A DNA stretch of 63,856 nt, filler included. It is 14 parts of 14 records of this genome, joined end to end, with 100 filler letters (N's around TTAATTAATTAA, not from the genome) between each part and the next. Parts side by side here need not be neighbours in the genome. Positions count along the whole stretch, not along the records: positions 55,112 to 60,575 come from SRR15195285_941; 13 more parts are not named here. One strand, given 5' to 3'. Each line of letters begins with the position of its first letter. Positions within the stretch are counted from its first letter, which is position 1. The position numbers were made by a program, and so were the translations under genes. Under the pieces are notes generated by a model. It was not told where the DNA came from, did no database searches, and saw only the letters and a program-made list of their open reading frames with translations. Of this stretch, positions 2,962 to 63,654 are shown one piece after another.

Positions 2962-3214
2962 GCTAGATCTAGCACGCGCCGCCACGCCAGCCTGCCATAG
3001 CCACCAGTGCTACGCCGCACAATCTGGGGGGAAATCTCCCATTGGAGGAGGAGTGCCAGGATCGACCGTATTTCGGCCCAGCAGCGCCGAAATTCTGGCC
3101 CTAGCACTTGCAATCCGTTGACCCACTCACGCGCGCACGCTCTAGCTCTTGATCAATCACAGCAGCCACGAGCCAGCCCTCACAGGGTACGGCCACCACA
3201 ATGTGATTCCTGGG

Positions 3215-3314
3215 NNNNNNNNNNNNNNNNNNNNNNNNNNNNNNNNNNNNNNNNNNNNTTAATTAATTAANNNNNNNNNNNNNNNNNNNNNNNNNNNNNN
3301 NNNNNNNNNNNNNN
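3215..3314. other. Artificial contig-joining spacer (first of 13)
   Basis: N44-TTAATTAATTAA-N44, a six-frame stop linker. Identical spacers start at 6697, 11460, 14946, 23047, 26814, 30652, 35452, 43096, 46273, 51743, 55012 and 60576. Adjacency across spacers has no biological meaning. Confidence 0.98.
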
Positions 3315-11288: not shown

Positions 11289-11559
11289 AGTTGATCTCGC
11301 TGCCAGATGCCTCACTTGAATTAGCTGAATGCGCGCGTGACGTGTGGGTGTGGGTGCCAGGCGTGACGACTCGCTCCGGAGGGGGTGATAACGGCTGATA
11401 ACGGCTGATATACGACCAGGGGGGTGCCTGATGCTCTGTCGCGCTGCAGCTGCGCGAGGNNNNNNNNNNNNNNNNNNNNNNNNNNNNNNNNNNNNNNNNN
11501 NNNTTAATTAATTAANNNNNNNNNNNNNNNNNNNNNNNNNNNNNNNNNNNNNNNNNNNN

Positions 11560-14500: not shown

Positions 14501-14936
14501 AAATTTTGTGGATGGGCTAGCTGCACGGTTAGTTAGAGTCGAAACGCTCGAGCAATTTAAAGTGTTGCTCCGCTGCCTCAAAACATTTGTCACATCCTGG
14601 TCAGGCTCAACAGCGATTAGTGGAGTGAATCACTTCTTCGCGATCGTGCTCTTCTGCTATGGAATCTACAACTTCGAGGAAAACTTTAGTCTTGAGCTGA
14701 TGAAATACCTGTATTGCGGCCTTGGTTTGACCATAACTGGCGTTGTCACCTCTGCTGGCTCCTTCGTGCAGCGGACCTGGACCCAGTACAAATTCTTCCC
14801 TACGGATGATTCGTTCAGACTGGCGTGCGTGCTGAAGGCCTTGCTTGTCATGAATAAGGCACTGATAGTTTACGAGCTCTCAAAGATTGATGCCAGCACG
14901 ACAGTCAGCATCGAGCGCCATGGGACTCCGTTTTAA
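11560..14936 (+). CDS. Multipass membrane protein with Cys-rich CxxCxxG (ephrin-receptor-like/GCC) repeats and EGF domains; 5'-partial
   Basis: ORF of at least 1115 aa: CxxCxxGxY/F repeats, EGF motifs (YRCDCSAGYGGPNC, YKCTCPTGFSGDNC), then more than 10 hydrophobic segments. Confidence 0.75.
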
Positions 14937-14945: not shown

Positions 14946-15652
14946 NNNNNNNNNNNNNNNNNNNNNNNNNNNNNNNNNNNNNNNNNNNNTTAATTAATTA
15001 ANNNNNNNNNNNNNNNNNNNNNNNNNNNNNNNNNNNNNNNNNNNNTGCAGTGCCCAGGTTCTATTGCTATTCTATCTCTAGAGAGGCTCAATACTATTGC
15101 TACTAGTACTACAGCTGTAGCTAGTAATTGCCTCAAGAAGTGCATATATTTATATATAGCACTTCAATCCGGTCTTCGCTGCAGTACCCAGGTTGAATGG
15201 ATGACCAATTGACCGGCCGCGTCAACTCGTTCGATTCGGCGACATGCAGACCGAGACCCAGACGGCGATGCTTTGCGATCGTCCTGCAAACTCAGACTCC
15301 GCAGGATTCCGGTGGAAAATACGGTCGAGTTTGTACGCGGTTTCGCTGCACTGCAAACTCAAACTAAAATACATACTATTGTATGATCAGACCTCCACAG
15401 AATTGCAAGTTCGCACAGGGCACGTGAGTCGTACATGTACCTTGTGTACACGGGGAACTGCTGGAATTCCTACGAGTTTCGAGCGCGCTCGCGCGCATGC
15501 ATGGATCCAAAATTCATGATCTTCAACGTGTGCCCAGCCTGGCACGCCGGGGCCGCCCCGCCCCGGCCCACACCGACGCTCTAGCTCTAAGGCGGCGCCG
15601 GCCACACCTCGTGAGCGATCCCGACCAGCGAGGACACCTGCCTCCGTCATCC

Positions 15653-18526
15653 ATGCAGGCTGTGAAGAAATTTGCTGCTGGTCGCTGGTCTCGCGCCAGC
15701 TTCTCCACACACGACCGAGCCGATCCCCCGCTACACGAGCGGCTCGAGCTGCCGCAGTTGCAGCACGCTGCGGAGGTGCTGCGCGATGAGTTCGGTGTGC
15801 CACACATCTACGCCGAGACCGAGCATGACTTGTTTTTCCTGCACGGGTTCTGCCAGGCGGAGGACCGGCTGTGGCAGATGGAAGGCCTGCGGCGCGTTGC
15901 GGCAGGCCGTGTCTCCGAGATGATGGGCCCAGGCGCGCTGACGGTAGACAAGTTCGCGCGCACGCTGGGGTGGTCCCGCCGCGCCGCAGAAGAGTGGCAG
16001 CTCCTGTGCCAGTCGGACGACCCGAATGCCACGAAGGCTGTTGCGATGCTCACCGCATACTGCGACGGTGTGAATGCGTTCATCGACCAGGCAACTGCAC
16101 AGGGTGGCCGCGGCAACATGCTGACTGGCGGCCCACTGCCTTTCTACTTCATGCTGCTGAAGATCGACCCGGAGCCTTGGCGGCCTGAGGACACACTCGG
16201 AATCCTGCGTGTGCTGTGCTATCAAATGAATCATGGTGGCCAGCATCCGGCAATTCGGCAGCTGCTCGCCAATATCGTAGGCGAAGACGACGCTTTGCGG
16301 TGGTCCCGTACCGATCGCGATCCAGCGACCGACAAAGAGTGGCCACCGACTCGACCGTCGCTATCAGACCCAAGCGCAACACCCGATTCACAAGGCCATT
16401 CAAGCACAGCAAAGAACGCACCAACTGCCAACCCAACTGCACAGGCTTCCGCGCACTGTGCTACTGCAGTCCCAGATGACGTTTTGCTCCGCACGCTAGC
16501 GGGTCAGCCATCGGAGCGTGACCTCCCGTCTCAGGGGCAAGGCAGCAACTGGTGGGCCCTAGGGACGGAGCGCACGTCCACTACTGGGCCGCTTCTGGCA
16601 AATGATCCGCACCTGAGCGTTCGTGTACCTTCCATCTGGTACGAATCTCATTTGCACGCAAAAGAAACCAAATTGCATACCACAGGCGTCCAGATGCCTG
16701 GATTTCCTGTCACAATTATCGGGCACAACGACCATGTCTGTGTTGGAGTCACTCTCGGGTATACAGACACCGAAGACCTTTTCATAGAGCGGTTCGTTGG
16801 CAAGACAGATCTACGGCTGGGACACTCAACGTCATACATGCATGAGGGACTAATAAAAGAGGTTACCACGTATGAGGAGACTGTTGTGGTGAAAGGCGAG
16901 ACTGAGCCGGTCATGATGATGGTGGCGGAGACTGTGCACGGTCCAGTAGTTTCGCAGTGCGCTGGCGACCATGTGACGGCCTACGATGTCGCGCGTGCGG
17001 AGGCCGTCGCAGCAGATGATGGGCACTTCGGAACACATGACGCAGATGGCGTGACAATGGAGATTTCTTTCTGCGCGAAGGGCCTGGCACCGCGCACTGG
17101 TGCTATGGAGGCCCTGTATGCGTTGGCCCATGCGACGGACGTAAAGTCTGCACGTGCAGCGTTTGAGCACGTTGCAGCGCCGTCATTGAACATCGGTCTT
17201 GCTGACGACGCGGGAAATATTGGTTACGCACTCGTTGGGCGTGTTCCAGTACGTGGATGCATGCCTGGAGCAGAGATGATGCCACTTGCTGGTTGGACTG
17301 GAGACAATGACTGGCGTGCAGACACACCATGGGAACTCATGCCACATTCCATCAACCCACACGGGGGAAAGCTGGTCTCGGCTAACCACCGCATCGTCCC
17401 GACAACGGATGAGAAGGTTTATCTGGGGAATATTTGGGTTGCTGGATGGCGCGCGTTGGCGATTCATGACGCGCTGGATGAATGGGAGGCCAACGGCGTG
17501 CGAGTTGGGATTGACGAGAACCAGGCTCTGCAGATGGACTTCCGCTGCATTCCAGGCGAGCATTTCCGTGACTTTTTCTCCGTGAATCAGATGAAGCTCG
17601 AGACTACACAGCAGCTTAGTGAGACAGAGGTCGCAGGGCTTCGCGAGCTGGTGGCATGGGATGGGAGAATGGAAGCAGACAGTATCGGGGCGACTCTGTA
17701 TGAGTTAACTTCTGACGCAGTCGCTGATCTGGTGTTTGAGTCTTTGCTAGCTCGAAATGAAGCCACAGATAGTGGAGACGACGCAAAGAAAAGAATGATG
17801 TCAGCAGAGAGGCTACTGCAGCTGGCGACTGGTCAGGGGATAGATCCATCCCTACGGGGACGGTCAGAGCTCAAGAATGGTGTTGTGAGCACGGTTCTCG
17901 AGGCGCTGGCGCAACCTTCTTCCTGGTACCTTCCGGATGGCGACGCCGTTCCAGTGATGGCACAGGCGCTGCGCGTTGCCTGCACATATCTCCAGGCGAA
18001 GCTCGGTGAAGATGTGAGCGAGTGGCGGTGGGGTAAACTGCATGTCTGCCATTTTACGAACCAAGGCGCAGGACAACTAGGAGACTTCCTGAACGCGCCC
18101 CCGTTTGAGTTCGGTGGCAACGCTGATACGATCGCGCAGGTGAGCATCGCCAACATTGGTGCTGATCAGGTGAGTTGCTTGCGCGCTGTTCAGCATTATC
18201 CTCCCACCACGAGATCGTACTCGCACTGTTCCACAGTCGGATTCAAGTCGATTGTACTGCAAGTGATCATGCGATGCCCACAGGTGCCATCCCAGGATCC
18301 ACCGGGCACTGCTTCATACAGGGTTGTGTATGATCCGATGGATTGGGACAGCTGTAGAAACATCAATCCAGTAGGGCAATCCGAGAAATACGGCAGCGTA
18401 CATTATCACGACCAGACGGAACTTTGGGCGAGCGGGACACTGAAGCCGATGCGATTCAGCCGCGCCGCAGTCGAGTCGAATGTTCGGACTCGCAAGGAGG
18501 TGCTGCCGAGACACGCTCGCATGTAA
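15653..18526 (+). CDS. Penicillin acylase family (peptidase S45) Ntn-hydrolase; probable in-frame intron 18170-18283
   Basis: RDEFGVPHIYA, GFCQAEDRLWQME, beta-subunit nucleophile G/SNWWAL, LLANDPHL, ETVHGP, ADDAGNIGY, WRWGKLH, GQSE..SVHYHDQ. The 114-nt GTGAGT..CAG segment interrupts the C-terminal region in frame. Confidence 0.9.
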   Translation: MQAVKKFAAGRWSRASFSTHDRADPPLHERLELPQLQHAAEVLRDEFGVPHIYAETEHDLFFLHGFCQAEDRLWQMEGLRRVAAGRVSEMMGPGALTVDKFARTLGWSRRAAEEWQLLCQSDDPNATKAVAMLTAYCDGVNAFIDQATAQGGRGNMLTGGPLPFYFMLLKIDPEPWRPEDTLGILRVLCYQMNHGGQHPAIRQLLANIVGEDDALRWSRTDRDPATDKEWPPTRPSLSDPSATPDSQGHSSTAKNAPTANPTAQASAHCATAVPDDVLLRTLAGQPSERDLPSQGQGSNWWALGTERTSTTGPLLANDPHLSVRVPSIWYESHLHAKETKLHTTGVQMPGFPVTIIGHNDHVCVGVTLGYTDTEDLFIERFVGKTDLRLGHSTSYMHEGLIKEVTTYEETVVVKGETEPVMMMVAETVHGPVVSQCAGDHVTAYDVARAEAVAADDGHFGTHDADGVTMEISFCAKGLAPRTGAMEALYALAHATDVKSARAAFEHVAAPSLNIGLADDAGNIGYALVGRVPVRGCMPGAEMMPLAGWTGDNDWRADTPWELMPHSINPHGGKLVSANHRIVPTTDEKVYLGNIWVAGWRALAIHDALDEWEANGVRVGIDENQALQMDFRCIPGEHFRDFFSVNQMKLETTQQLSETEVAGLRELVAWDGRMEADSIGATLYELTSDAVADLVFESLLARNEATDSGDDAKKRMMSAERLLQLATGQGIDPSLRGRSELKNGVVSTVLEALAQPSSWYLPDGDAVPVMAQALRVACTYLQAKLGEDVSEWRWGKLHVCHFTNQGAGQLGDFLNAPPFEFGGNADTIAQVSIANIGADQVSCLRAVQHYPPTTRSYSHCSTVGFKSIVLQVIMRCPQVPSQDPPGTASYRVVYDPMDWDSCRNINPVGQSEKYGSVHYHDQTELWASGTLKPMRFSRAAVESNVRTRKEVLPRHARM

Positions 18527-35910: not shown

Positions 35911-38900
35911 TCAGAGCAGTCGCTGTGCACCCACGACGTGACGCGCCGCGCGTGCAATTCCTCTCTCTGCGCCGTCTCTTGGCCACACTAAGTCTTGTGC
36001 CCAGGTAGGCGATGTATCATCGCGAGTTGCCACAACCAGCAAAGCTGAATCGCCCGTAGTCTTGGGTCTGTAGCAATTATAGAAGCAATCAGCTGCAATT
36101 TCGATCAAGTTGAGCGGCACTGGGAGCGCAGTGGCGAAGAAATATTCTCTGACGATACCGCCGAACAAAAAGCTCCATTCTTCGGTGGCCTGATCTACGA
36201 TTCGTGCAAACGTGTTGGACATCATAGCTATCATGAGGTTGACGAGAACAATTGATGACATTAACCAGAAGCTTGAGTTGAATAGCTCCTGTAGTATGAC
36301 CACGCGCACGTCCGGTTCATTCCACGCAGTTGCATTGGTTGGTGCATTATATGCTGCAGGGGTGTAAGTGCCGATGCCAGGGTCCATGCCACCCTTTGCA
36401 GTTACCATATTGCGCTCCAGACGAAAATCGGTAAGGGTTGAGATCGCAAAGTTAGCCAGCCAAAAATGGTGTTCGCTTCGATAACTGGGCTGCTCCAGCG
36501 ACCAAGAGAAGATGAATGCAGTCGTCTCGAAGCAGACCGTGACAAGCACCAGATATGGTAAAAAAGGCAAGACATCGTTCTGGCACATATTTGCGACGAT
36601 GATGTTGATTTGGCCCACGCGCGGCCATGCCGAGAAGCACTTGAGCAACCGCCAATGACACAAGAAAAGGTTCAACGTTAGCACGATAAACATTGCAGAG
36701 TATGCCTCGGGCCATTCAAAAGCAATGGCAGCTACCCGAAGCACAGATGCCACCAGAAAAAGCGCTGCAGTACAGATTTCCACGGCATTGCCCGAGCCCT
36801 CTACGTATTCTCGAAATGTTGCAAAATTAGAAGAATATTGTTTGAGCTCGGTGATCATGTAAGCAAAAGTCCAGGCCCAGAAAACGTACTCTAACGTCGT
36901 CGGACGGCGGCTCATATTGCTAGCCCAAGGAAATCCTGAGAGATACACATATATAAAACACGCAAGAAACATCACATACCCCACCGTAAAGCTCGCCCAC
37001 TTCGCTTGCGGTGAGGTCGAAGGAAAGAGCGTGTCAAAGCATCTACCATTGCCACGTCTAGACCTCCATGCACGCGAGAGAAACGCTATTGTAGCCGGAT
37101 GGCCCATAAAAGCTTTATTTTGGGTCATCATCGCCAGGTCCAGACGTGTGACGAAGGAAGCTGTCGGACTACACCCAAACAATTGCAAAACGGCACGGCG
37201 CCTAGTGTTCCACTCTTTCTGATCCTCGGTCATACGCTCGAGTATTGCTTCATTAGCACAAATCAAGTTTTCGTCGAAGAGCACGGTCAACGTGTCTCTC
37301 TGGGACAGATTGAACACTTGATGTTCGCCTAAGTAAGTCAGGATGGAACACAGCTTATTGTCCCATGCTGTGGCACATCCAGGTAAGTTTCGTTCTCTAA
37401 GAACAAAGCTGCACAGAAGACAGGCGACGATAGCGTCACCGCCCTTACCATGCTGATCAGCAATGTTGCCTTGGGCCCAGAGAATTTCTGCCATGTTGTA
37501 TCTTCCAGTCACTATTGCCCAGTACAGCCGCAAGAGTGGATCTAATGGGCATGTAAAGCGATCCGTAGTTGCACTAATACCATCATGCTGCAGCTTGCCG
37601 TCAAGTCGCACACCGTCAAACGAAATCCAGGGACAAAAAGCTTTGCATGAAGCTTTGAACAGACGCTTCGGTGTCGACGCGCTAGTCCACCCTGTCGTCT
37701 CGGCCACAGCTGACTGCTCCCATGGATTGTCAACGGCATCGAGAGCTGCGCCACCACGACTAAGACACTGGATTACTTCGTCGTCAATCACTTGCTGGAG
37801 TAGCACCAGACCGTGTCCTGGATCCTCAATGCATATCCACTGATACCTGTCCCAGTCTACTGCACTGATCGTCTGCGATTTTCCAGTTTTCAGGGATTCT
37901 AGATCGTTAGGATTCTTGACCATGTCTCTGTACAGGTACGTACACCTCTCTTGAAGTTGTTTCATCACCTCCGCACTGGCCACCTTACCTTTCACGTGCT
38001 TTGTTTCATCTCCGTGACAAATCAGCTCGACCTCAAAGTAGTTTAAATCAGGTGCAACTAGCTTATGCTCTACTCTACGTTGCTGAAACAGCTGTCCGAT
38101 TCTGATAGACCACTCACTTTCGCTTAACGTGGTGGGTGCATTTTGATCCGGCAAATATCCAACGCAGCAGAAGCTCCACCCACTCAACAATCGGAGCTGG
38201 CGCCATTTCACATGTTGATTAGCCTTGTAAAGAAAGCGGGACTGCTCAGATTGGCTAAGTTCGTTCCACTCATGTTCAATGGCTGCGACTAGAGTTGCAT
38301 CGCCGCGATGACCTTTGTGCTCCAACAGCTTCATCTGTCGCCATTCTGCGGGCATGTGAAATCTGGGCGTTTCCCAGCGTTTGCCTGCAAGGAGCTCCAT
38401 CTCGGACATCTGTCGGAAATTCAGGAGGATAAGATGGTCGAGAGAGTTTATATCAAAACCACAGCCGCACATCAGTTGCACAGCTTCCGCTTGATCATGA
38501 TATGAGGCCAATACAAGAGGCCGTGCGTCGATTGTCAGCTCGTCGTGGCCACTTGATTTGAGCACACCCTGCTCTTTCAAGACGTTGCGCAGCGAGTTCA
38601 TATCATTGTACTGAAGTGCCAAAGGCAGTCGAATCTGCGGCGTGACCATCTCCGATTGAAACACAGCCCTTAACACCATCAGCAAGAGCTCACCATCCTG
38701 TTTCTCGGTTGAGCCCTGCAGGTCAAATACATGCAGGTCCTTGTAATCTGCAATCTTATCTAATGTCTCTGCTCGGTCACTCAGCAAGTTGCGCAATTCC
38801 AGTTCCTTTTCTCTGGAATTTGGTAGCATACCACTGTAATGTTGATCCAGAAAGTATTTTCGTAGCGTACTGATTCGCTGTTGCTCAGCCTCTGCTGTCA

Positions 38901-40455
38901 GACCAGTTCCTGGCTTCCACTCAGCAATCAGGTCTGCTGCTCGACCAGACCCTTTGAAAATAATGACAGGAAATCCTTTGCATACAAACTGCTCGACAGT
39001 TTCAATCGTATTGGGGCCGCCACCAAAAACGATCCCTATGACTGGGACGCTTCGCTCGCCTGATGAACTCGCGTCTGCCTCTCTCTCTGCAGCAAAGTTT
39101 CTGCTTTGGTTCAGTCGGACCTTGTCTGTCAATTTGGTCAGACTGTTGTGAAGCTTTGGTTTTGCATCATAACGAAATGATACAAAATCAACCAGCTCTT
39201 CCCGGAAGTATACCTCACGCCCCCAACGATCTGTGCCACCATCTGCGTCTGGTGGTGCAACATAGCCGTCATCAAGCAGCAGGTAGTGACTGTGATTCGG
39301 ATTGAGCGCAGCCCCTTCCCACGGCCCTTCACTTGCTTCTTGGTAGACCCCTGTGTAGCGAAACGGATTATCACCGGTGCCCTTTCTGGTCTCTGTGTCG
39401 TCTATCAACTCAGTCCGACCATTGACTACTACCCACGGCGCGATTCCAATCGCTGTATGCATCGCTTTGTTTTGTGCCAAAATGTCTCCCATGAGCTTCA
39501 TTACACCTGAATCGGTCCCACCAGAAACAATCCAACTGTTGGTGTTCTCAATAGCGTGAATCATTGCGTCTTGGAAACTAGAGAGCGCATCTGGACGCAA
39601 CGGTACAGGAGTAGCACTACCTGTCACTGAGAAGATGATGGAAGGCATTGTCATTTGCCATGAAGAACGCATCAACCCTACGAGGTCGCGCAGTATGCTC
39701 ACGCGCAGCTCCTGCTCAAATGGCTCGAGCTCGGAGAACGGGCGAACGTCAGTCTGCAGGCGCATAAACTTTGCTTGCTTCGATTCGGCCGAATGCTTGG
39801 CGTTCCAGTCGATCACGGTACGCAGCGCACAGTCCCCTACAAACTCCATCTGTCCGTGCTCACCTTGCGTTGCCTCTGGGGCGAGGAATACGTGCGTGAG
39901 CATGTGAAAGTGGAACCCTCCTGGGATTCCCGCCGGTGCCGAGCGGGTATAGGTGAGAGTCTCAACAACGCTGCTGCGCCGACCAGCGTGATAAGAGGTC
40001 GACCGCGCACGCCGCGCAAGGCCTTTCAATCTTGATGCGAATTTCGCCGTGTCCGCCACTGATCCTGTAGCAGACGTGTGCTGCGGCGAAAACTCCAGTG
40101 CCCTCGAGGCTGCTTGGCCGTCCGTCATCCGCTGGAAGGACCCTGGTTCGGGTAGGGGGGAATGGCCGAGGCTGCCAAACCGCGGTCGTTTTGTGAGCTT
40201 CCCAGAGCCGCCTGAAGTGATGTCACATCTTGGTCCGGCTGAGGTGATCTCATAGCTTGATGTCCTCGATGAAGTGGGCGTCAAGCTGCTACTATCTCCT
40301 CCAGGCTGGTCTACCGCTGGCACCAGCGACGGCAGGCTTCCCAGGGGGTGCCCCACGGCGGAGCCGTTATGTGTGGCATTTTCTGGTCCGGCGGCGGAAT
40401 CCATCACGAGGATGCATCCCTGCTCGTCGGCCGAATTTGTCCCCTCGTCGGCCAT
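35911..40455 (-). CDS. TRPM-family cation channel
   Basis: 1514-aa ORF: PSIIFSVTGSA, WIVSGGTDSGVMKLMG, AIGIAPW, LNPNHSHYLLLDDG, GGGPNTIETV, GSGRAADLI (MHR1/2, SLOG-like); LYWAIV.GR..MAEILW; TM helices; S6/TRP box IVLVNLMIAMMSNTF..EEWSF..EYF..LPVPLNLI. Confidence 0.92.
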   Translation of the reverse strand: MADEGTNSADEQGCILVMDSAAGPENATHNGSAVGHPLGSLPSLVPAVDQPGGDSSSLTPTSSRTSSYEITSAGPRCDITSGGSGKLTKRPRFGSLGHSPLPEPGSFQRMTDGQAASRALEFSPQHTSATGSVADTAKFASRLKGLARRARSTSYHAGRRSSVVETLTYTRSAPAGIPGGFHFHMLTHVFLAPEATQGEHGQMEFVGDCALRTVIDWNAKHSAESKQAKFMRLQTDVRPFSELEPFEQELRVSILRDLVGLMRSSWQMTMPSIIFSVTGSATPVPLRPDALSSFQDAMIHAIENTNSWIVSGGTDSGVMKLMGDILAQNKAMHTAIGIAPWVVVNGRTELIDDTETRKGTGDNPFRYTGVYQEASEGPWEGAALNPNHSHYLLLDDGYVAPPDADGGTDRWGREVYFREELVDFVSFRYDAKPKLHNSLTKLTDKVRLNQSRNFAAEREADASSSGERSVPVIGIVFGGGPNTIETVEQFVCKGFPVIIFKGSGRAADLIAEWKPGTGLTAEAEQQRISTLRKYFLDQHYSGMLPNSREKELELRNLLSDRAETLDKIADYKDLHVFDLQGSTEKQDGELLLMVLRAVFQSEMVTPQIRLPLALQYNDMNSLRNVLKEQGVLKSSGHDELTIDARPLVLASYHDQAEAVQLMCGCGFDINSLDHLILLNFRQMSEMELLAGKRWETPRFHMPAEWRQMKLLEHKGHRGDATLVAAIEHEWNELSQSEQSRFLYKANQHVKWRQLRLLSGWSFCCVGYLPDQNAPTTLSESEWSIRIGQLFQQRRVEHKLVAPDLNYFEVELICHGDETKHVKGKVASAEVMKQLQERCTYLYRDMVKNPNDLESLKTGKSQTISAVDWDRYQWICIEDPGHGLVLLQQVIDDEVIQCLSRGGAALDAVDNPWEQSAVAETTGWTSASTPKRLFKASCKAFCPWISFDGVRLDGKLQHDGISATTDRFTCPLDPLLRLYWAIVTGRYNMAEILWAQGNIADQHGKGGDAIVACLLCSFVLRERNLPGCATAWDNKLCSILTYLGEHQVFNLSQRDTLTVLFDENLICANEAILERMTEDQKEWNTRRRAVLQLFGCSPTASFVTRLDLAMMTQNKAFMGHPATIAFLSRAWRSRRGNGRCFDTLFPSTSPQAKWASFTVGYVMFLACFIYVYLSGFPWASNMSRRPTTLEYVFWAWTFAYMITELKQYSSNFATFREYVEGSGNAVEICTAALFLVASVLRVAAIAFEWPEAYSAMFIVLTLNLFLCHWRLLKCFSAWPRVGQINIIVANMCQNDVLPFLPYLVLVTVCFETTAFIFSWSLEQPSYRSEHHFWLANFAISTLTDFRLERNMVTAKGGMDPGIGTYTPAAYNAPTNATAWNEPDVRVVILQELFNSSFWLMSSIVLVNLMIAMMSNTFARIVDQATEEWSFLFGGIVREYFFATALPVPLNLIEIAADCFYNCYRPKTTGDSALLVVATRDDTSPTWAQDLVWPRDGAERGIARAARHVVGAQRLL

Positions 40456-41142
40456 CGATCGCGCTACCTAGGCGCCATTCTGAGCCCTGCTTGAGAAAAC
40501 ACACAGCACACTGTACACACACACGCACACACACTGCACCACTAAACTGAGTACATGTTTGAGCGCTGCACCGTTTCGATCACTGGAGTTGAAAAGAGGG
40601 CGGGAACTGCCCCCAGAGCCAGTGCGTGGTCCAGAGCGCGAGCGTATATCATACGTATCGCGTGCGCGCAGCACGGACGTCCGTGTCGACGCAGCACGGA
40701 CGCGTCGACGCGCGCTACCCGCGCTTAATATCGCGCACGCGCGCAGCGCGCTCGCTCGTTCACGCCTATTCCTGCCGCGCGCGGGCGCATGCTCCAGTGA
40801 TTGCTCCTCGCGACGCGATGAGAATGCTCGCGCTCGTGCGCGGCGTGCTGGGCAGATAGAGGGCACTCGCGCGCACCTAGTACGTAGTAGTACAAGTAGC
40901 AATCAGCAAAATATACCGGTAGTATACACCAATACTGAATACAGACACCCCAATAAATCCTATATACAGTCAGTGCCCGCCATATCGATGTGTAAAACAT
41001 TTCGACGTCACCGACACACGCAGCGGGTGCTGGTGGCCCCTGTGGCTCGCCGGCACGTCCCCCGCCAACTGGACACGACGATAGACAGTGTTAGCACCTG
41101 ACGGAGCCGTGTACATCCAGGATTGTGCGGCCCCATGATCGC

Positions 41143-55111: not shown

Positions 55112-55141
55112 GGGTGTGACGGTGAAGAACGAAGGACTGAC
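55112..55141 (+). repeat. 30-nt direct repeat, identical to the contig's other end (60546-60575)
   Basis: GGGTGTGACGGTGAAGAACGAAGGACTGAC at both termini. Confidence 0.95.
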
Positions 55142-58100
55142 GATTGCATCCGGAGGCATCGATGTTCAGGACGGAGGATGTCGAGTTGCTGGAGGGCTTG
55201 CTGTCTCGTGCGGTGGAGTCACCGTGGTATCAGGCCACGTCAACGCGAATGGTGGCTTGGAAATATTTTCGGGAGGAACTCAAGTTGGCGAGAGTATGCG
55301 TGTTGCCAACGGTGGCATGCAGGTTGGGTTTGGCGTTTCTGTACAAGCCGGAGGGGCCTTGATGCACGGCCCAGTCTCCGTCCGCGACCTAGGTGTTAAC
55401 AGTTTCGGGTTGTCTACATTTCGGGCAGGCCTTCGCGTTCGCGGTGGAGTTTCGATAGGTGATGTTGGTGTTCAGATCGGAGGCGGTGTGGCCATTTCAA
55501 ACGGCCGCTTAGGACTCGGCAGCGACGATGTTTTCAACCAAATAGTAGTTCGCGGACAATCAAGCATAGGACCTGTTGTGTCACAGTCGAACCCGAGCGA
55601 TGTCGTTTTCGAGGGCCCGTACAAGGGCTCTGCTTACCCAGCACGCATCGAGGTTCATATCGACAGCTCGGCAGGCGCTGAACCGACTGATACTTTCGCT
55701 TGGCTGAAATGCACCACAGTCGATGGAGGTGAGGACCTCGCATTTTTCGTTTTTTTTCCATTTGTTTTTGTTTTTCCGTTTAGATCGATTTTCAAATCGA
55801 TGATCTAACCCTCCTTTATGCTCTGAACCGCGATGCAATACTAGTGTGCGTGCACACTGAGGCGTCTCAGACTGGTGTACCAATAGCTGTAAGACCCGAT
55901 GGCCGGCCCGTGCCACAATTGCTCATCGACGGTGTACGTGTAACGTTTGTATCTGCCACGGGCCATCAAGTAGGAGAAAGTTGGTCAGCGACTCTTTCTG
56001 CTGTGAATGCACTAGCATTACGTAGCGTCCGGTCGGTCGAACGAGTTGTTGTTGGACAGGACGGAAGCATAGCAGCCGGCGGGGGGTTGGCGCTGGGCGC
56101 TGGAATGCGCGCCGGGGACGCCGTCCAGGTAGTGAATGGCCGAGTGATAGTCTTACAAGGCTCGGACATCTTTGGTCAGCTGAAGACCGATGGTGCGATA
56201 TCTCATCTGGCCATCTCGTGCAATGCCGACTGTGCAATGCAAAGATGACCGTATGATACTCAGGGACGTTCGTGCTTGGTGTTCAGGGCTCGCTATACAA
56301 GAAGGGAGTCTGACTAGCTCTGGTAGGACCCTCCACATGTGTATCTTGACAGGTCACGCCAAGCATCGTAGCACCTTGAACGCTCATACCGTCCACGCGG
56401 TTCTCGGTCCAGTGCTCCTGTCGAACTTTGCACGCTGATGTCCTTGTCGCCCGTCTTGCGCTGCAGGTGCCACTACAGTTGCAGCAGCTGGACAGCTTGT
56501 CGTGCACTCGGGGGCTGATGTACACGACAGTTTAGCGGTCTTCGGCGCCGAAGTAGTACATGGTGCTCTGGTTGTGAATGGCAGCGTCAGTAGTGCAGGT
56601 GGCCTCGTTCTGTCGCATGGCAGCGTCCAGATTGATGGGGATGTGGAACTTCATGGGACCACGAGTGCTGGTTTGTCATCTCTTGCTGGAGGAATGCTTG
56701 TCTCCCACCAAGGCTTGCGGGTCGGTCACAGGGTCAGCGTTCAAGGCTTTGCTGGATTCGCCAGTGGTACAATGGGCTTGGCTGCGTCGGGGGGGTTAAA
56801 TGCCAGCAGAGGTACGTCTTTTATTTTCAGGGTGCTGGTCAATTGCATTGACACGCAAGCAAGACTGCTGCAGTCCACTCGTGTCACGTTTCTGAGCATA
56901 GCGTTTGACGTTTGCCGTTTGCCGTTTGCCGATCTGGCAACGGTACGTAGGCGCTACGGTCAGCGGGTTTGCATCTGTATCGAATGGCGTCGATGTGCGG
57001 GGAGGAGGCGTGCATGTAGCAGGTGGAGCCTTGCTGCAAGGTGGGGTGAGGACCGGCGCAGGCTTCATCTCGGTAGGCACACTACACCTTGACGGTGCTC
57101 CAGCTGACTTCTCTCAATCAACCATCGCAGGTGGGTTGCGAGCAAGCGGATCAATGGATATCTTGCACGGTGGTCTGGCGGTATCTGAAACAGGTGCATA
57201 TGTTAGTGGAGGTCTTCATGTGTCTGAGATAGGATTGAACGTTGTTGACGGAGGCTTACATGTGGTTCAAACTGGTGCCTTGGTATCGGGCGGTGAGCGA
57301 GTCGCGGGTGGTGGTGTGCTGGTTCGTGGAATCGGAGACATAGTTGGAGCAGCACGAATCAGAGGGGGCACACGCTTGGCCAACACGACCACGATTGGGT
57401 CTGGCGGAATGCATGTTCTCGGGGGTGCTGGCATGGCTGTGGCGAACGGAATGCGCGCCATCGATGCAGGGGTGGAGATGGCTGGGAGATTTTCTGTGGT
57501 CAGTGGTGAAACGCTTGTTCACGGTGGCATAGACGCAAAAACTGATGGAATTTGGGTTGCAACTGGTGGCGTCAGTGTGCAAAGTGGCGAGGTTTCTGTT
57601 GCTGGATACGGCAATGCTAGTTTCTTGCTGGATATCGTTGCCAGTAGCAAAGCGTCCGCTGGCATGCGGGATGTGTCAGGCGCGACAGGTGTGATCATCT
57701 CAGACGCGGGCGAGATGCGAATCAGCGGAGGAGCAGCAGTCCGCGGTGGAATGACGATGGTAGGCGAATTGTCTGCTCTCAATGGCACCGAGATCAGCAG
57801 TGGCGGCATGAAAGTTTCGGGTAGGTTGCTGGTGCAAAGCGGGTTCGCTGTTGTTGGCAACACAAGCAGTACAAGCGGCGCAACAGCCCATGGCGGGATT
57901 TCTACCTCTGGCTTGCCGCTAATCGTTGATGGAGGCGCTACGATTGTTGGCTCAAGCAAGTCGAGAGTGTTTGGTGGATTGACGGTATCAGACTCTGGCA
58001 TAGACATCCGGTCTGGCGGGGCTACCATGTCGGGTGGCGCAGTTGCGCACGCGCCGATCACCGTGAGTGCGAGTGACTTGTCAGGTGCGGGCCGATCGTG

Positions 58101-60575
58101 TACATCTTGGGATGCAAGCAGTATCGTTGTGCTTCATTTTTCTAATTGTCTGTCTGTTTCGTGGATGTTTCCTGTCTGGCTGGAACACAACGTTCACAGT
58201 TGAGGGTGAGGCAGCTTCACCCGTCATTCCTGCTCATTGTGCGACCATACCATGTCTTTATTTTTTTTGTTCCGGTGGCGTTTGTAGATGCTACATACTT
58301 TCGCGGCGGGGCCTCAGTGGTGAGTTTCGCGTAATTTTGTGGTTGGAAGTGGTGCATTTGTGCGCAACCAGTCTTAACGCGTGGGCTTGCCACGCGAATA
58401 GGACGATGGTATCAATGTTGTGGCAGCAGGAGCCAACGTGTTGGAGGGTGTCACTGTGACAGGTGGAGCAATAGTCCACGGCGGTCTGACAGCTGGCGCA
58501 GATGTTCACGTGGTAAGTCATTTGCCGGAACGTGTCTTGGTTAACAAGCAACTTGGCCTTCCATCGGATCCGAGCAGGAATTACATCTGGGGAATTTATG
58601 GTGGCTGCCTTGATACCCACCCTTGCCTCACCGGCACAACCGGAGCCTACGATCGCAACGGCACAGAGCGTTTCTCCATTTCAGATCACGGTGCTAGCTT
58701 TCATGCGGGTGGATTCAGTGTTCGTGGCGGCGTTCTAGTCAACGGCGGTGGTGTTAGAGTTGGTGATGGTCTCCGAGTCTCTAGGTCAGCATCTGTGAGT
58801 GGTGCAGCCATCGTCATCGGTGGCGCAGACATTTCAGACGGATTGACAGTCCTCAACGGCAGCATTCGTGTAGCTACACACGACGTTGTATTGTACGGGT
58901 CTGCATTAGTTGGGCAGAGCTTGCGCGTCGCTGGGCTTGGGGTTAGTGCTACTGGCCGGATTGCGGTTCAGTCAGGCGGGGTAGCAGTTGGTCTAGACGG
59001 TGTCTCTGTAACTGGTGGAGCACAAGTCTCAGGCGCAGCAGATGTGTTCAGCCCTGTCACCATTTCTGACAGCGTCAAGGTCTCAGGAAGTGTCATGCTA
59101 ACAGACGGGAACCTACTGGTTGCTTCGGGCGGCGTTGAAGTTCGATGCGGTGCGAGCTCGCTACACACCCAAGGTGCTGTGGCCCAGGGTGCGACCTTGG
59201 GCGGTCGAGTGGAAATTGCTGGCTCGTTGAGCGCGTTGCAAGGCGCGGTAGTGCACGGAGGCGTATCTGTTGTGCGTGACGGCATCCTAACAAATGCTGG
59301 TGTGCGGATTCGTGGAGGTCTGTCTACAGCAGGTGGTTTGTCGCTCCTTGATGCGGGCTTAAGTGCCTCTGGACACGTGCACGTGCCTGCCGACGGAGCT
59401 TCTATTGCTGGAGGCGTACGTGTGCATAACGGTGCGCAGATGCATGGAAGCATGCTGCTCGAGCACATGGTTGCGTCGAGTGGTATGCTGGTCAAAGCTC
59501 GGGGCATCGCTGTTATGGACGGAACAGTAGGGCTGAACGAGGAAGCCGCGGAGGCGTCCCTTGATGCGACTGCTGTGCCCGAAATTGGCCACATAGATTT
59601 TACTGGGCGTGGCTCTGCAGCATTTACTGTGATGGGAGCGTACAGTGAAGACGTGGAACGTGACTTCGTTGTAGTAGTCACGAACGCCGTGCATGTCTGC
59701 GACGACACGTGCGCGGCCCACACAGCCTTCTCGTGTCACAATGATCACCTGTGCGAGCCTACTGGTGACCTGGTGGCTCCGTGCGTTGCGAAAAATGCAT
59801 CCTGCACAGCTGTCACAGACTTGCCCACAGATGCAAACCAGGCGCGGGTACTGTGTGAGCACAACCATGCATGTGAGTACAAGGCTCAAACTTTCGAGTG
59901 GAGTAGTTGCATCAGTAACGTAGTACCTACGGCCTGCAGCGCTGGAGCTGCAAGTTTTTCTTCGAGAATGCCGGCCTATGTCGATCACGGACTATCTGTC
60001 TTGTTTGACTATACCGACGGTGTGAGTATCAACGGGTGTCGCGATGCTCATGATGCCATCTTGCCGGACAAAACAAGCCGCATCTCATGCGAAAGTGCCC
60101 CGACTGGTTTCACCTGGGATGCAGGTGTGTGCTCTAAAGCGGACGCTGATCAGAGTTCGTGCGAAAGTATCGGGGCAACATGGGCAGGTGGGTTGTGTAT
60201 CAAGGAAGCAGATGACCAAGGTTCTTGCGAAATCGAGGAGACGGGCAACGCATGGATGCCTGATTCGTGGGCTTTTCACGTGGCACCGTCGCTGCTACTG
60301 GCTGCAAGGAGTGCCATTGGAGCTAGATCAACTGTCGTTGCGCCTGGCGGGTCTATTACTTCTAGTGGTGGAGCTTCGTTTGCAGACGGGGCTGCAATTG
60401 CTACCGGGACGTTGCATGTACTTGGTGACGGCATCAGCGTGGCGAGTGGTGGCGCCAATGTTGCTGATGGCGCTACGCTGGATTCTGGCATGCTGTGGCT
60501 GCGCGATGGGGGTGCCGAGGTGCGTGGCGGGGCTACGCTTAGTGGGGGTGTGACGGTGAAGAACGAAGGACTGAC
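55112..60575 (+). CDS. Internal fragment of a very large Gly/Val-rich beta-repeat (fibre-like) protein, multi-exon
   Basis: Long runs of GGxxVxGG repeats across ORFs 55116, 55844, 56502, 56905 and 58420, joined by GT-AG introns (e.g. 55729-55844, 56193-56286, 56323-56467, 56812-56950). Open at both contig ends. Confidence 0.75.
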
Positions 60576-60675: not shown

Positions 60676-63654
60676 TGCGGCTGCGGCTGCGGCTGCGGCT
60701 GCGGCCGTAGCGCCTGGTACCTACGATTGGTTCGGCTGGTTTTGTCTCGTATCGGAGCGAGGGCGACCTTGAACGCGACCGTCTGGGCGACCTGCAGTAC
60801 ACATCTCGCTCAGATCAACATTCCTCAAAGGTTGTGGGGGGACACGTGTGTGGGTGTGATCATGTGCGTGTGAGTGGTCAGAAGACAAAGATGTTCAGGG
60901 GCTTACCTCGAGATGCCGTCGGCTTGCGAGGGTAGCGCCGCGCCCGACCGGTTTAATCGCTGACGAAGTTCCTCTGCACGGGCCTCCGGTATCGGTCCAT
61001 TCGCCAACGCGAGGACCTCCCTGCCCACACACGTGCGCCAGGATATTCACCTCAAACCATAAGTTTACAATTGTTTCTAATCACTCTGAATTCACATCCA
61101 AACCACAGACGTCTTGCAGCGGCCATGTACCTCCCGTTGTGGTCGCGAAGTAGCCGTGGAGACGAACTCGGAGACGGAGAGCGGGAGCTGCGGCGTCCTT
61201 GGCCTCGCCTGCCACGTGTGCTAGCTGTCACTCGTAGCGCGAGATCTTCGCGACGCCATTTTTCCTGCAGAAGCCTGCTGTACATCACCTGCTGTAAGCG
61301 TCTGTTCGAAACGAGAATGTGTTTTGCAAGCAACGTACCTATCGGCTGCTTGATCACTGTCCGAGGACCAAGACGATGCGTCTTCCTCCTCACTGTGGCC
61401 TACAGGATTTGATGACTGCTCGGTGGCACGAGCAGCAGCAAATCGCCGATGGTGACTAGACCTGCACAACCCAACGCCAAAATCAGTTTGTTTAGACTCT
61501 CGCTGATGGCTTACAACTTTAGCAGAAGCAACAGCCACGCGGGTAGGTAGTGGAGGCCTAATGAAGGACATTATGTGATGGGCACCTTAGTCGACGCGAT
61601 TGGCTCGTAGGGCGCTGGCGTGGGCCAAAGCCGCTACCGACCCCACCACCCACAGGAACAGCTGCCACTACTCGTCGGTTTGCCCGACGCTCAGCCTCAC
61701 GTTCTATCTCTTCCGTACGGTCCGCAAGTTCGTCCGCCACAGCGCTTGAGATCTCCTGTCGCCGCCGCCGTTCTTCGTAAGCCCAATTCTTCGTCTCCTC
61801 GAGCTTGAGCTGCAAGTCTTCTGCGTGCTCTTCCGCCAACCGGCGCTCGCGTTCAAGCTGGCGCATCCGACGCCGAGTCTGTGGCGAAGTTTTTATGCCT
61901 GGTCTGTACTGGTTCTGAAGCCTTGCGTAGTCGCGTCGCCTCGCTCGCCGTAGTAGTCTTCTCACCAGTCGCTCCCACCCGCTGGCTTGATGTCGAACAG
62001 CACGGGAGCCCGCGAGCTTGTGCTGAAGGGCAGTCTCCTGAAGGGCATCCACCCACAGCTGCTTCTGGCTGATACTCTTTGCGACGATTGCTAGCTGCTC
62101 TCCACTAGAGGTAATCACTGTGAACCCCAACGGGTTTGCTGCCGAGCTGTCTGGGCGCACGCTCACCACCGTGTGCGTTTGGTGTTCGTGTGGGTCAATT
62201 CCTGGACACCAGTGCTTCTTTTCGTGCACTGAGAGCCGCCCTGCTTCGAGCGAGAACTCACGGTGATGGCGATGCTGTCCGTCCTCGTGGCGCAGCTTCA
62301 TCATCGTGGGGTCCAAGCGTGGCCGCATATCCACGTCATCCTCCGCTCTGCCTGCGCTGCCTCGAGAGAAAGATCGCGGGGACAGCGCCGTCCTGGGCGT
62401 CGTCAATGAATCAAAATATGTTGGCGACCTAGAACGGCTTCTTCTACTGGGGTGCCGAGCTGACCCAGTTCCGGAGCTGCCCCGCCTACCCATCGATAGC
62501 GCATGATCCTGGAGCATCTGCTTCTTTGCCTCGCTGGATGTGGAGCGTGCAACGCCGCGGAGCACACCCGCGCCATGCGCGGCGCGGTCTTCGTTTCTGC
62601 GACGACCAGCACGACGTCCAGGGTGCGAACGAGACTGCTCTCCAGTTTCTCGGTTGACCCAGTAGCGCTTACCAGTACGGCTCGAGACAACTGCGGTCCA
62701 GTCTGGTGGGAGCTGCCAGCGACCACCATCTGAGTCGTCATCGCTGCTGCCGTCGTGCTCGGACTCATCCATGGAGGAGCTGGACGGCCAGGATTCCATC
62801 GAGTTCGCATCATCGTCATCATCAGAAAGTGTGTGCCCACCGCCGCCAGCGGCAAAACGCAGAGACTGCTTCCAGCGGCGAAGATCGCGCTGGTTTGGTG
62901 TAGAGATGCGCAGCTCCTCGCCAGTATACGTCGTCACGACCAGCACGCTCTGCTGCCCAACTCGCTCCTGCTCCACCTCTGCACCGTGCAGGTTCCAAAG
63001 ACGTGTGCTATTGAGCCTTAGTGGGTACGTCCCCTCGTATGCCGTGCCGTTTAGGGTCGACTTCGTCACTGGATGCCCAGCATAGCGCACGATATCCCCA
63101 GTGTCATTGAGTTTGACGAGCCAGGGATCAAAGGGCGCACTGGTAAGCTCACGCGCCAGCTCCTCAAGCGGTGCGTCATCGTCTTTCTTCGGGTCGCGTA
63201 CCAGCAGCAGCCCTTTCTCAGGCACTAGCTCGAGCTCGCGCGATTGCCACGAGGCCACCCAGCTGTTCTTGCAGTACTTATCCAGTGTCCCATACATTGG
63301 CGACGTGCGCACGTCATGTCGAGCAGTTGGCGACAACGGCTGCCCTTTGGGCCACCGGCCGGCAGCCTTGCTGTTCTTCGTGCTGTGCCGCGACGGGTTT
63401 GCCGAACAGCAAAAGGCACCCTTTGGCGGGTGCCGGGTGTCGGTAGCGCGGGGCGACCCAGATAAGAGGTTCAGCGATGACGGCGCTGGAGACAGTCCAG
63501 GACTCCTCGGCCGAGCATTAATCTGAGGCCGGGCTTGGATCAGCCCCACCGCAGCGCCATCACCCTGCCTCGCCACACCAGCGCGGCGCCCGGCGCCGCG
63601 CACAGGCCGCGGTGGCGCGTCCAGGCCCCGTTTTTCCGCGGCTATCGCCGCCAT
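60676..63654 (-). CDS. PH-WW-PH domain protein with coiled coil and RS-rich C-terminal exons; 3'-partial
   Basis: YGTLDK..SWQSREL..LRRWKQSL (PH), LPPDWTAVVSSRTGKRYWVNRETGEQSRSHP (WW), KQLWVDALQ (second PH), then a coiled coil; downstream RSPSP/SRSRSR exons. Start and exon boundaries approximate. Confidence 0.65.

Follow-up and report, generated by a model that had tools for sequence, protein, structure and literature searches.

A probable tandem unit of an intron-containing marine protist gene that may encode a modular, beta-helical fiber or adhesin

What kind of gene yields a 5.4-kb stretch that reads as a long glycine-rich protein, is broken by introns and closes on itself without a stop codon? 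The question is raised by positions 55112-60575 of the window, the whole 63,856-nt stretch of DNA analyzed here, which a first-pass annotation had described as a giant intron-containing protein built like a viral tail fiber. Our reading, held with moderate confidence, is that the stretch represents a single unit, 5,434 nt long, of a protist nuclear gene far larger than the contig, and that the gene product is a secreted, modular beta-helical fiber or adhesin. In such a protein a rod would be interrupted by two nodes, each followed by a conserved "R...VGQDG...GG" re-entry junction, and one node would carry disulfide-type cysteine-rich insertions. The window is cut by 13 linkers (TTAATTAATTAA) inside runs of N into 14 unrelated contigs of 3.1-8.0 kb, and 55112-60575, the exact interval first proposed, is one complete contig between two of these linkers. 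Because its bounds are artificial, the genes adjoining it in the window are not its true neighbors.

Five long open stretches are readable by eye in the contig, and a first model joined them by four GT..AG introns chosen to hold the frame (1,522 aa, without a stop); this model was replaced by an RNA-guided one with seven introns. The final spliced unit comprises 4,662 nt of coding sequence, specifying 1,554 aa with 0 stops, and 7 introns of 82-144 nt, all GT..AG (Table 1). Five GT..AG joints are directly visible in RNA contigs of the metatranscriptome run X13. These contigs skip 56193-56286, 56323-56466, 56812-56950 and 58320-58401, all GT..AG, and one joins 58084 to 58287 by way of the letters TTGAG; a sixth intron, 58206-58287, is placed because this same contig carries the micro-exon letters between its two sides. 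The RNA data split two introns of the first model and so added exons of 36, 6 and 32 nt, and intron 4, at first predicted, was later found as a joint in X13. Intron 1 is predicted, without an RNA joint, from its GT..AG ends and an in-frame stop further on, and is also backed by an intron at the same position in the related metagenome contig L001 and by an uninterrupted homologous stretch in the related protein P0006. DNA contigs of runs X1 and X2 retain the introns. The introns noticed at first are thus real, and more numerous (seven per unit) than a reading by eye suggests.

All seven introns are kept in position in L001, whose exons are 65-71% identical to those of the unit in DNA and 50-69% in protein. 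The four intron stretches of the first model cannot be aligned with L001 except for islands of 41 nt (85% identity) and 28 nt (82%); these two islands are the 32-nt and 36-nt mini-exons, and L001 has the same 6-, 32- and 36-nt exons at the same places. The 6-nt TTGAGG is an unusually small conserved exon inside the repeat unit: its context AG/TTGAGG/GT is identical in L001 (about 3052-3057), though the exons as a whole are only 65-71% identical. The ratio of nonsynonymous to synonymous substitution rates (dN/dS) against L001 is 0.15, 0.11 and 0.25 for exons 1, 2 and 4 (dS 1.2-1.6), which marks the glycine-rich parts as constrained coding sequence. Together with the spliced RNA contigs, these values bear out the original proposal of a giant intron-containing eukaryotic gene. 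Two intron stretches vary or match elsewhere. In intron 4, a GTTTGAC-type tandem stretch (56903-56931) differs in length or sequence in X2 DNA contigs, probably a microsatellite polymorphism; in intron 1, an unrelated 1,103-nt X1 contig of depth 123 matches a T-rich stretch (55743-55775) at all but 3 positions, probably a low-complexity cross-match from another organism.

The two ends of the contig share an identical 30-nt word in the same reading frame, which makes the contig a closed cycle of 5,434 nt; such an overlap is found in 1 of the 14 contigs, and the peptide GVTVKNEGL is read in the open frame at both ends. With an open frame and a spliced length divisible by three, each unit would be translated straight through into the next, and as the unit lacks a stop and its frame continues into the next unit, the real gene is larger than the contig. 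In our view the contig represents a single member of a tandem array in which adjacent units contain near-identical stretches, and a short-word assembler would therefore have closed the contig on itself. The endless frame could instead be an artifact, either of a free 5.4-kb circular DNA or of a mis-closed single-copy region, since the identical ends span only 30 nt, as word-based assembly would give, and contig depth is much alike in the body and in the branches, though depth is no measure of copy number. Linear sequences speak otherwise. P0001, a second related protein, and L001 read from the exon-5 homologue straight into the exon-1 homologue, and on the linear L001 the tail of the exon-5 homologue is followed by the counterparts of exons 1-4 and then by exon 5 once more; the end-to-start continuity thus exists in a different organism on linear contigs. 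Likewise, P0006 is collinear with about 1.5 turns of the cycle in a single open frame on a 10.2-kb contig (tblastn against the contig): its residues 204-321 and 1635-1741 both match 60220-60573, after which a different C-terminal part follows, an order that argues for a tandem array in a linear gene. The continuity is also present in RNA, where 2 X13 contigs span the step from 60545 to 55112; they carry 9 and 12 mismatches and so come from a diverged copy. Finally, in two DNA runs the cycle has branch points, one leading in at 60361 and one leading out at 55141/55142. A 328-nt X1 contig enters at 60361, and a 1,812-nt contig present in two DNA runs matches 55112-55165 (3 mismatches, the first at 55142) and then continues, reading by eye as a diverged copy over 30 letters beyond the shared part. 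Given in addition a spliced unit that is an exact multiple of three without a stop, we regard an artifact as highly improbable.

Relatives of the tandem unit are few. A whole-library protein search returned 23 matches at E ≤ 0.001 among 1.84 billion representatives, 7 of them at ≤ 1e-10 and 5 at ≤ 1e-30. The close relatives are P0001 and P0002 (61-62% identity; two matches among 8,000 scored candidates) and the metagenome contig L001, the only yield of an alignment-based scan; a single-protein metagenome scan confirmed 0 of 69 pattern matches. Sources were checked for eight family proteins (seven library hits and P0001), and those that are named are EukProt Picozoa sp. SAG25, COSAG01 and COSAG05, a COSAG02 fragment in the 90% cluster of P0001, and Tetraselmis striata. 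From these names we infer that the organism is a picozoan or a close relative. The stretch itself is nearly identical in 19 sequencing runs from 14 studies, all labeled marine or seawater metagenome; half or more of its words occur in 13 of the runs, and 6 are RNA libraries.

The picozoan proteins P0006 (SAG25, 2,229 aa), P0011 (COSAG01, 2,917 aa), P0015 (COSAG05, 938 aa) and the P0001 cluster share with the unit a node domain, the junction motif and glycine-rich repeats, and P0006 has the same cyclic order of parts. They differ from it in node spacing, and identity to the unit is only 30% for P0006 as against 61% for P0001. Moreover, no intron interrupts the 2,229 codons of the SAG25 gene, as against seven introns in the unit. 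According to PMC8599508, the Picozoa single-cell proteins are Prodigal calls on SPAdes assemblies; P0006 is therefore a true uninterrupted frame, and the SAG25 lineage lacks the introns seen here. A literature search found no paper on such proteins in Picozoa; supplements lay outside that search, and those of PMC8599508 may list the contigs concerned.

The node was delimited by iterated local search as an all-beta domain of ~125 aa that recurs across the family, with the consensus G.YTG...EV.ID...DTF.W.KC...VPI...LIEGV.V.F..TGH...W...A.N.L..R...VGQDG...GG. There are four full copies and one partial in P0011, three in P0015, one and partials in P0006, and node A and a split node B in the unit. 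Two related globular nodes had been picked out by eye, and their kinship holds: a profile built from 9 node copies of 4 relatives, with no sequence from the window, matches both node A (E 1.8e-27) and, as two collinear pieces (E 2.6e-4 and 1.8e-3 in a search space of one sequence), node B, which is thus a divergent copy. The pieces of node B are set apart by cysteine-rich insertions that contain 16 of the 23 cysteines of the unit; P0001 has these insertions in common with the unit, whereas node B of P0006 lacks them. A third junction, read at the outset as NGTERFSISDHG, is present at 58657-58692, lacks a full node before it and matches the profile weakly (E 0.28). The parts are met in the order rod, node A, rod, junction 3, rod, node B, rod, repeated, and P0001 and L001 are alike in this; a build of beta-repeat rods punctuated by related nodes is therefore retained from the earlier description. 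By eye, the second insertion of node B (60022-60279) contains 2-3 copies of a SCE..G..W..G.C motif, which has no Pfam match.

By the sequence searches made, the node is a new domain with no counterpart in Pfam, PHROGs or the PDB. One of 8 node sequences hit a PHROG, at a non-significant E of 0.24; in Pfam, CBM_2 came up for two of these eight, at best with E 0.012 and 14 bits where the cut-off is 24; and a sequence search of the PDB returned nothing at E < 0.1, with the legume lectin 3ujo at E 0.12 to the node profile. The second half of the node thus shows a weak, recurring likeness to the beta-sandwiches of legume lectins and CBM2, always below significance and the Pfam cut-off, and the node is about half as long as a legume lectin domain. 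A node-centered word search with the node-bearing protein P0012 recovered only P0012 itself among 133 candidates of 157-503 aa. The structure model of the node has a predicted local distance difference test score (pLDDT) of 31-47 over the node, too poor for fold comparison. A Foldseek search of this model against the viral-only library BFVD gave one row at E 9.2e-4, which was discarded, template-modeling scores (TM) being ≤ 0.28 and root-mean-square deviations (rmsd) about 9-46 Å. In the ESM Atlas the cluster closest to the node is an all-viral one of 210 aa (score 0.86, TM 0.54 over 85 residues), a lead only. Nor did the exons of the unit match any Pfam family, and the early suspicion of something undescribed is supported, as the family has no significant match in Pfam, PHROGs or the PDB.

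The rest of the unit is mostly repeat. The first four-intron model (1,522 aa) consists of 17.7% G, 12.8% V, 11.8% A and 10.4% S. Glycine autocorrelation in the 1,554-aa unit peaks at lags 6/7, 13, 19 and 25, none of which is reached in 2,000 shuffles, and the same peaks occur in the first model; the period is ~6.3 residues, and GGxxVx-type strands make up about 1,100 of the 1,554 residues. An estimate by eye of well over 1,000 aa of repeats was sound, with 1,554 aa per unit and no stop. An AlphaFold2 model of exon 5 (14 sequences; mean pLDDT 44, predicted TM 0.33) has 3-residue strands every ~6 residues, with pLDDT 52-67 over rod residues ~110-330. Over residues ~56-411 it aligns at high Z (VIA-align 2) with single-chain right-handed beta-helices: the Vag8 passenger (Z 22.1, rmsd 3.4 Å, 316 aligned residues), EtpA (21.7, 3.5 Å, 362), the phage Andhra upper tail (19.5, 3.8 Å, 332), a pertactin entry (18.5, 3.2 Å, 286) and the HMW1 secretion domain (16.8, 4.2 Å, 244). 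Tapirins and many phage tailspikes come next at Z 12-16, Pam1 reaching 16.1 and CBA120 TSP3 15.6. From this model we propose, with low to middling confidence, that the rod is a three-sided, single-chain, right-handed beta-helix; it would have ~19 residues per turn and, by arithmetic, measure roughly 25-30 nm per unit. A trimer prediction with three copies of exon-5 residues 80-400, run without an alignment and without controls, scored 0.00 against a mark of 0.32 and is uninformative. ESM Atlas neighbors of the repeats comprise an unnamed viral cluster (0.91), a eukaryotic Fil_haemagg cluster (0.87) and Bactofilin clusters (0.85-0.87), to be taken as leads only: by calibration, Atlas scores below 0.9 are no more than leads, and chance alone produces 0.9 in 4-10 of 100 cases.

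Do the rods and nodes descend from viral fibers? Homology to phage or giant-virus fiber proteins, part of the original proposal, was not upheld. A tblastn search of 50,697 phage records gave no match for exon 5 (E ≤ 1e-3), nor for exon 4 or P0012 (E ≤ 1); in IMG/VR, 0 of 142 matches to two peptide patterns were confirmed; and the best PHROG matches of the unit (E 0.0013-0.03) fell on glycine-rich stretches only and were not significant. Thus no viral or prokaryotic sequence homologue emerged in the searches made, in which prokaryotic genomes were not scanned for the node. A virus-like architecture survives in part, in that the rod model resembles tailspike bodies, but the bacterial adhesins Vag8 and EtpA score a little higher; the tail-fiber interpretation is, overall, partly supported.

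One alternative is a phage-type trimeric fiber: an intertwined triple beta-helix with a C-terminal S74 intramolecular chaperone outside the contig and nodes as trimeric knobs of the sort that long tail fibers bear, ultimately virus-derived. In phages, Peptidase_S74 (PF13884) folds trimeric fibers and spikes. The domain is absent at E ≤ 1 from the five exon translations, and the C-terminus of the gene lies outside the contig; P0006 and P0011 are themselves truncated at their C-terminal ends. It does occur in 4 of 8 scanned distant matches to the repeat region (P0018-P0021), at 45-66 bits against a cut-off of 22, downstream of similar glycine-rich repeats and along with EGF-like domains. These four proteins are 29-31% identical to the repeats of the window over 200-290 residues (E 6e-5 to 3e-4), but a pattern search found none of the node motifs in them, and the likeness may reflect only a shared repeat type. 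A phage-like build is thus argued best, yet indirectly and weakly, by these distant S74-carrying protist proteins. Further points in its favor are the viral Atlas clusters closest to the node (0.86) and to the repeats (0.91), a glycine autocorrelation that falls smoothly with no extra peak at 19, as equivalent faces would give, and the low pLDDT of the monomer, which may be common for obligate trimers. The Atlas scores, however, lie below or close to a level that chance can reach, the best structural matches of the rod model are single-chain beta-helices, and the searches of the phage records, of IMG/VR with two peptide patterns and of PHROGs yielded no significant match. On balance we think a phage-type trimer unlikely.

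A different viral reading would place the gene in a giant virus or other cell-associated element and not in a protist nucleus. The relatives do stem from single-cell genomes and metagenomes, in which viral DNA is present as well, and fiber-type viral proteins fill the weak BFVD list, but that library is viral-only and its matches have TM ≤ 0.28. Seven spliceosomal-type introns per 5.4 kb, conserved in two lineages and spliced in RNA, are at odds with such an origin, as are a GC content of 0.555, within the 0.519-0.613 of the other 13 contigs, and the lack of a relative in IMG/VR or the phage records. We give this reading almost no credence.

A nuclear gene for a fiber or adhesin leaves the question of where the product resides. 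We suggest that it is secreted and forms an extracellular fiber or adhesin on or around the cell, in which rods would serve as spacers and nodes as binding or hinge modules. This is consistent with the modeled rod fold, which is that of secreted adhesins and spikes, and with the EGF modules of related proteins; weak signs of secretion are the clustered cysteines of node B, nine N-x-S/T sites in the unit and a segment at the start of P0011 that, judged by eye, resembles a signal peptide. The product could alternatively be an intracellular, bactofilin-type cytoskeletal polymer, for example part of the fibrous feeding basket in picozoans. The distant match P0013 from Tetraselmis striata hits Pfam Bactofilin at 6.7e-19, Bactofilin clusters are among the Atlas neighbors (0.85-0.87), and the description of Picomonas judraskeda (PMC3608682) reports a feeding apparatus with basket fibers and, by electron microscopy, smooth flagella and no scales, hairs or glycocalyx, which keeps an intracellular role alive. 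On the other hand, no exon of the unit matches Bactofilin at E ≤ 1, and the cysteines of node B, the N-x-S/T sites, the start of P0011 and the EGF-like domains of related proteins point to the secretory pathway. We hold an intracellular polymer to be very unlikely.

Several points nonetheless weigh against a secreted beta-helical product of a tandem picozoan gene. The cell surface described in PMC3608682 for the only described picozoan, without scales, hairs or glycocalyx, does not favor a conspicuous surface fiber; the hair, spine or extrusome role first suggested is conjectural. The true N- and C-termini lie outside the window, so that secretion depends on the N-terminus of one relative, judged by eye. 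Foldseek found no match for the rod model in the PDB at E ≤ 0.001, and both structure models are of low confidence (mean pLDDT 44 for exon 5, 31-47 for the node), for which reason neither the beta-helix fold nor its single-chain nature is secure. RNA contigs of run X9 are unspliced (56310-57079 and 57752-58657), indicating pre-mRNA or carry-over of DNA into the library, and spliced forms are therefore known from one run, X13. Contig depths give no copy number for the unit. Lastly, the assignment to Picozoa rests on the names of relatives at 30-61% identity and not on a marker gene.

Among known systems, the modeled rod is closest to bacterial single-chain right-handed beta-helix adhesins, namely the two-partner secretion proteins EtpA, HMW1 and FHA and the autotransporter passengers Vag8 and pertactin, which it would resemble at Z 16.8-22.1 (rmsd 3.2-4.2 Å over 244-362 residues) and which also have a period of about 19 residues per turn. 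Fil_haemagg (PF05594) is detected in P0015 (25.8 bits) and P0022 (29.6) above its cut-off of 21.5, and in P0012 below it (17); the exons of the unit do not match it at E ≤ 1. No Pfam family of the two-partner secretion (TPS) or autotransporter secretion module was found in the exons of the unit, P0006 or P0011. Furthermore, the bacterial adhesins lack node domains, whereas the unit belongs to a eukaryotic gene with introns. Phage tailspikes and tail fibers are, like the proposed protein, elongated beta-rich rods with knobs, and tailspike beta-helix bodies are among the matches of the rod model (Andhra 19.5, Pam1 16.1, CBA120 TSP3 15.6), but sequence homology extends to no phage record or PHROG family. 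P0018-P0021, uncharacterized proteins from marine metagenomes, combine similar GGxxV-type repeats with eukaryote-style cysteine-rich extracellular modules; they have N-terminal EGF and C-terminal S74 and coiled-coil regions, neither of which is seen in the unit.

The product would be a giant beta-helical repeat protein, a kind already known, that carries a new domain; the structure of its gene is unusual and well supported. Only one species of Picozoa, protists abundant in the sea, has been described and cultured; picozoans are tiny heterotrophs reported to feed on colloid-sized particles, and to our knowledge almost nothing is known of their cell biology. The family, nearly identical in 14 marine studies and with few database relatives, is a concrete candidate for a lineage-specific extracellular structure, and its node domain can now be defined and searched. 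The gene is also a clear example of a repeat unit several kilobases long with introns of its own and a conserved 6-nt micro-exon. It illustrates that short-read assembly can fold genes of this type into false "circles" and make them look smaller than they are. More speculatively, picozoans might make long extracellular fibers from phage-derived modules, namely trimeric beta-helical rods, an S74-type chaperone at the unseen C-terminus and lectin-like node knobs that catch colloids, viruses or bacteria. We consider this scenario a long shot; if true, it would amount to a domesticated tail-fiber-like capture apparatus in a eukaryote. Eukaryotic borrowing of phage fiber-assembly modules is known for MYRF (PMC3742443), and the S74 link, if true, would extend such borrowing to structural fibers.

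Table 1. Features of the contig at 55112-60575, numbered along the window
Feature	Position	Strand	Basis or remark
One complete contig, 5,464 nt, one repeat unit of the gene	55112-60575	+	N/TTAATTAATTAA linkers on both sides
30-nt terminal word, first copy	55112-55141	+	Identical to 60546-60575, same reading frame in both copies
Exon, 616 nt	55113-55728	+	Beta-repeats and first half of node A; continues the last exon of the preceding unit
Node A with VGQDG junction, split by intron 1	55587-56089	+	E 1.8e-27 to relatives-only profile
Intron 1, 116 nt, GT..AG, phase 1	55729-55844	+	Predicted; same position in L001
Exon, 348 nt	55845-56192	+	Second half of node A, its junction, repeats
Intron 2, 94 nt, GT..AG	56193-56286	+	RNA joint in X13
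Mini-exon, 36 nt	56287-56322	+	RNA joints on both sides; 36-nt AG/GT counterpart in L001
Intron 3, 144 nt, GT..AG	56323-56466	+	RNA joint in X13
Exon, 345 nt, beta-repeats	56467-56811	+	Gene model
Intron 4, 139 nt, GT..AG	56812-56950	+	RNA joint in X13
Exon, 1,134 nt, purely glycine-rich beta-repeats	56951-58084	+	dN/dS 0.25 against L001
Intron 5, 115 nt, GT..AG	58085-58199	+	RNA-guided model
Micro-exon TTGAGG, 6 nt	58200-58205	+	Letters within X13 RNA joint; identical in L001
Intron 6, 82 nt, GT..AG	58206-58287	+	X13 RNA contig
Mini-exon, 32 nt	58288-58319	+	X13 RNA contig; 32-nt counterpart in L001
Intron 7, 82 nt, GT..AG	58320-58401	+	RNA joint in X13
Last exon of unit, into next unit	58402-60575	+	Junction 3, long repeats, node B, repeats
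Third junction (NGTERFSISDHG); no full node precedes it	58657-58692	+	Weak profile match, E 0.28
Node B, divergent, two cysteine-rich insertions, then junction (approximate coordinates)	59623-60390	+	Two collinear profile pieces
30-nt terminal word, second copy	60546-60575	+	Identical to first copy

The linkers lie at 3259, 6741, 11504, 14990, 23091, 26858, 30696, 35496, 43140, 46317, 51787, 55056 and 60620, and gene neighborhood across them is meaningless for the whole window. Three other contigs carry long frames of their own. At 15428-18526 (+), an open reading frame of 1,032 aa has a full-length match to Pfam Penicil_amidase (E 3.3e-167); this is a mostly bacterial family, and the gene could be transferred or the contig a contaminant. 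The 1,518-aa intron-less frame at 35911-40467 (-) contains a SLOG domain of the TRPM type (LSDAT_euk, 1.5e-39), and its C-terminus weakly resembles a YVC1-like channel. A 1,142-aa frame at 11508-14936 (+) has EGF and ephrin-receptor-like cysteine-rich modules and so adds a further large protein of extracellular type to this genome. Directly after the linker that follows the tandem unit, the next contig starts with a (TGCGGC)n hexanucleotide run at 60677-60705.

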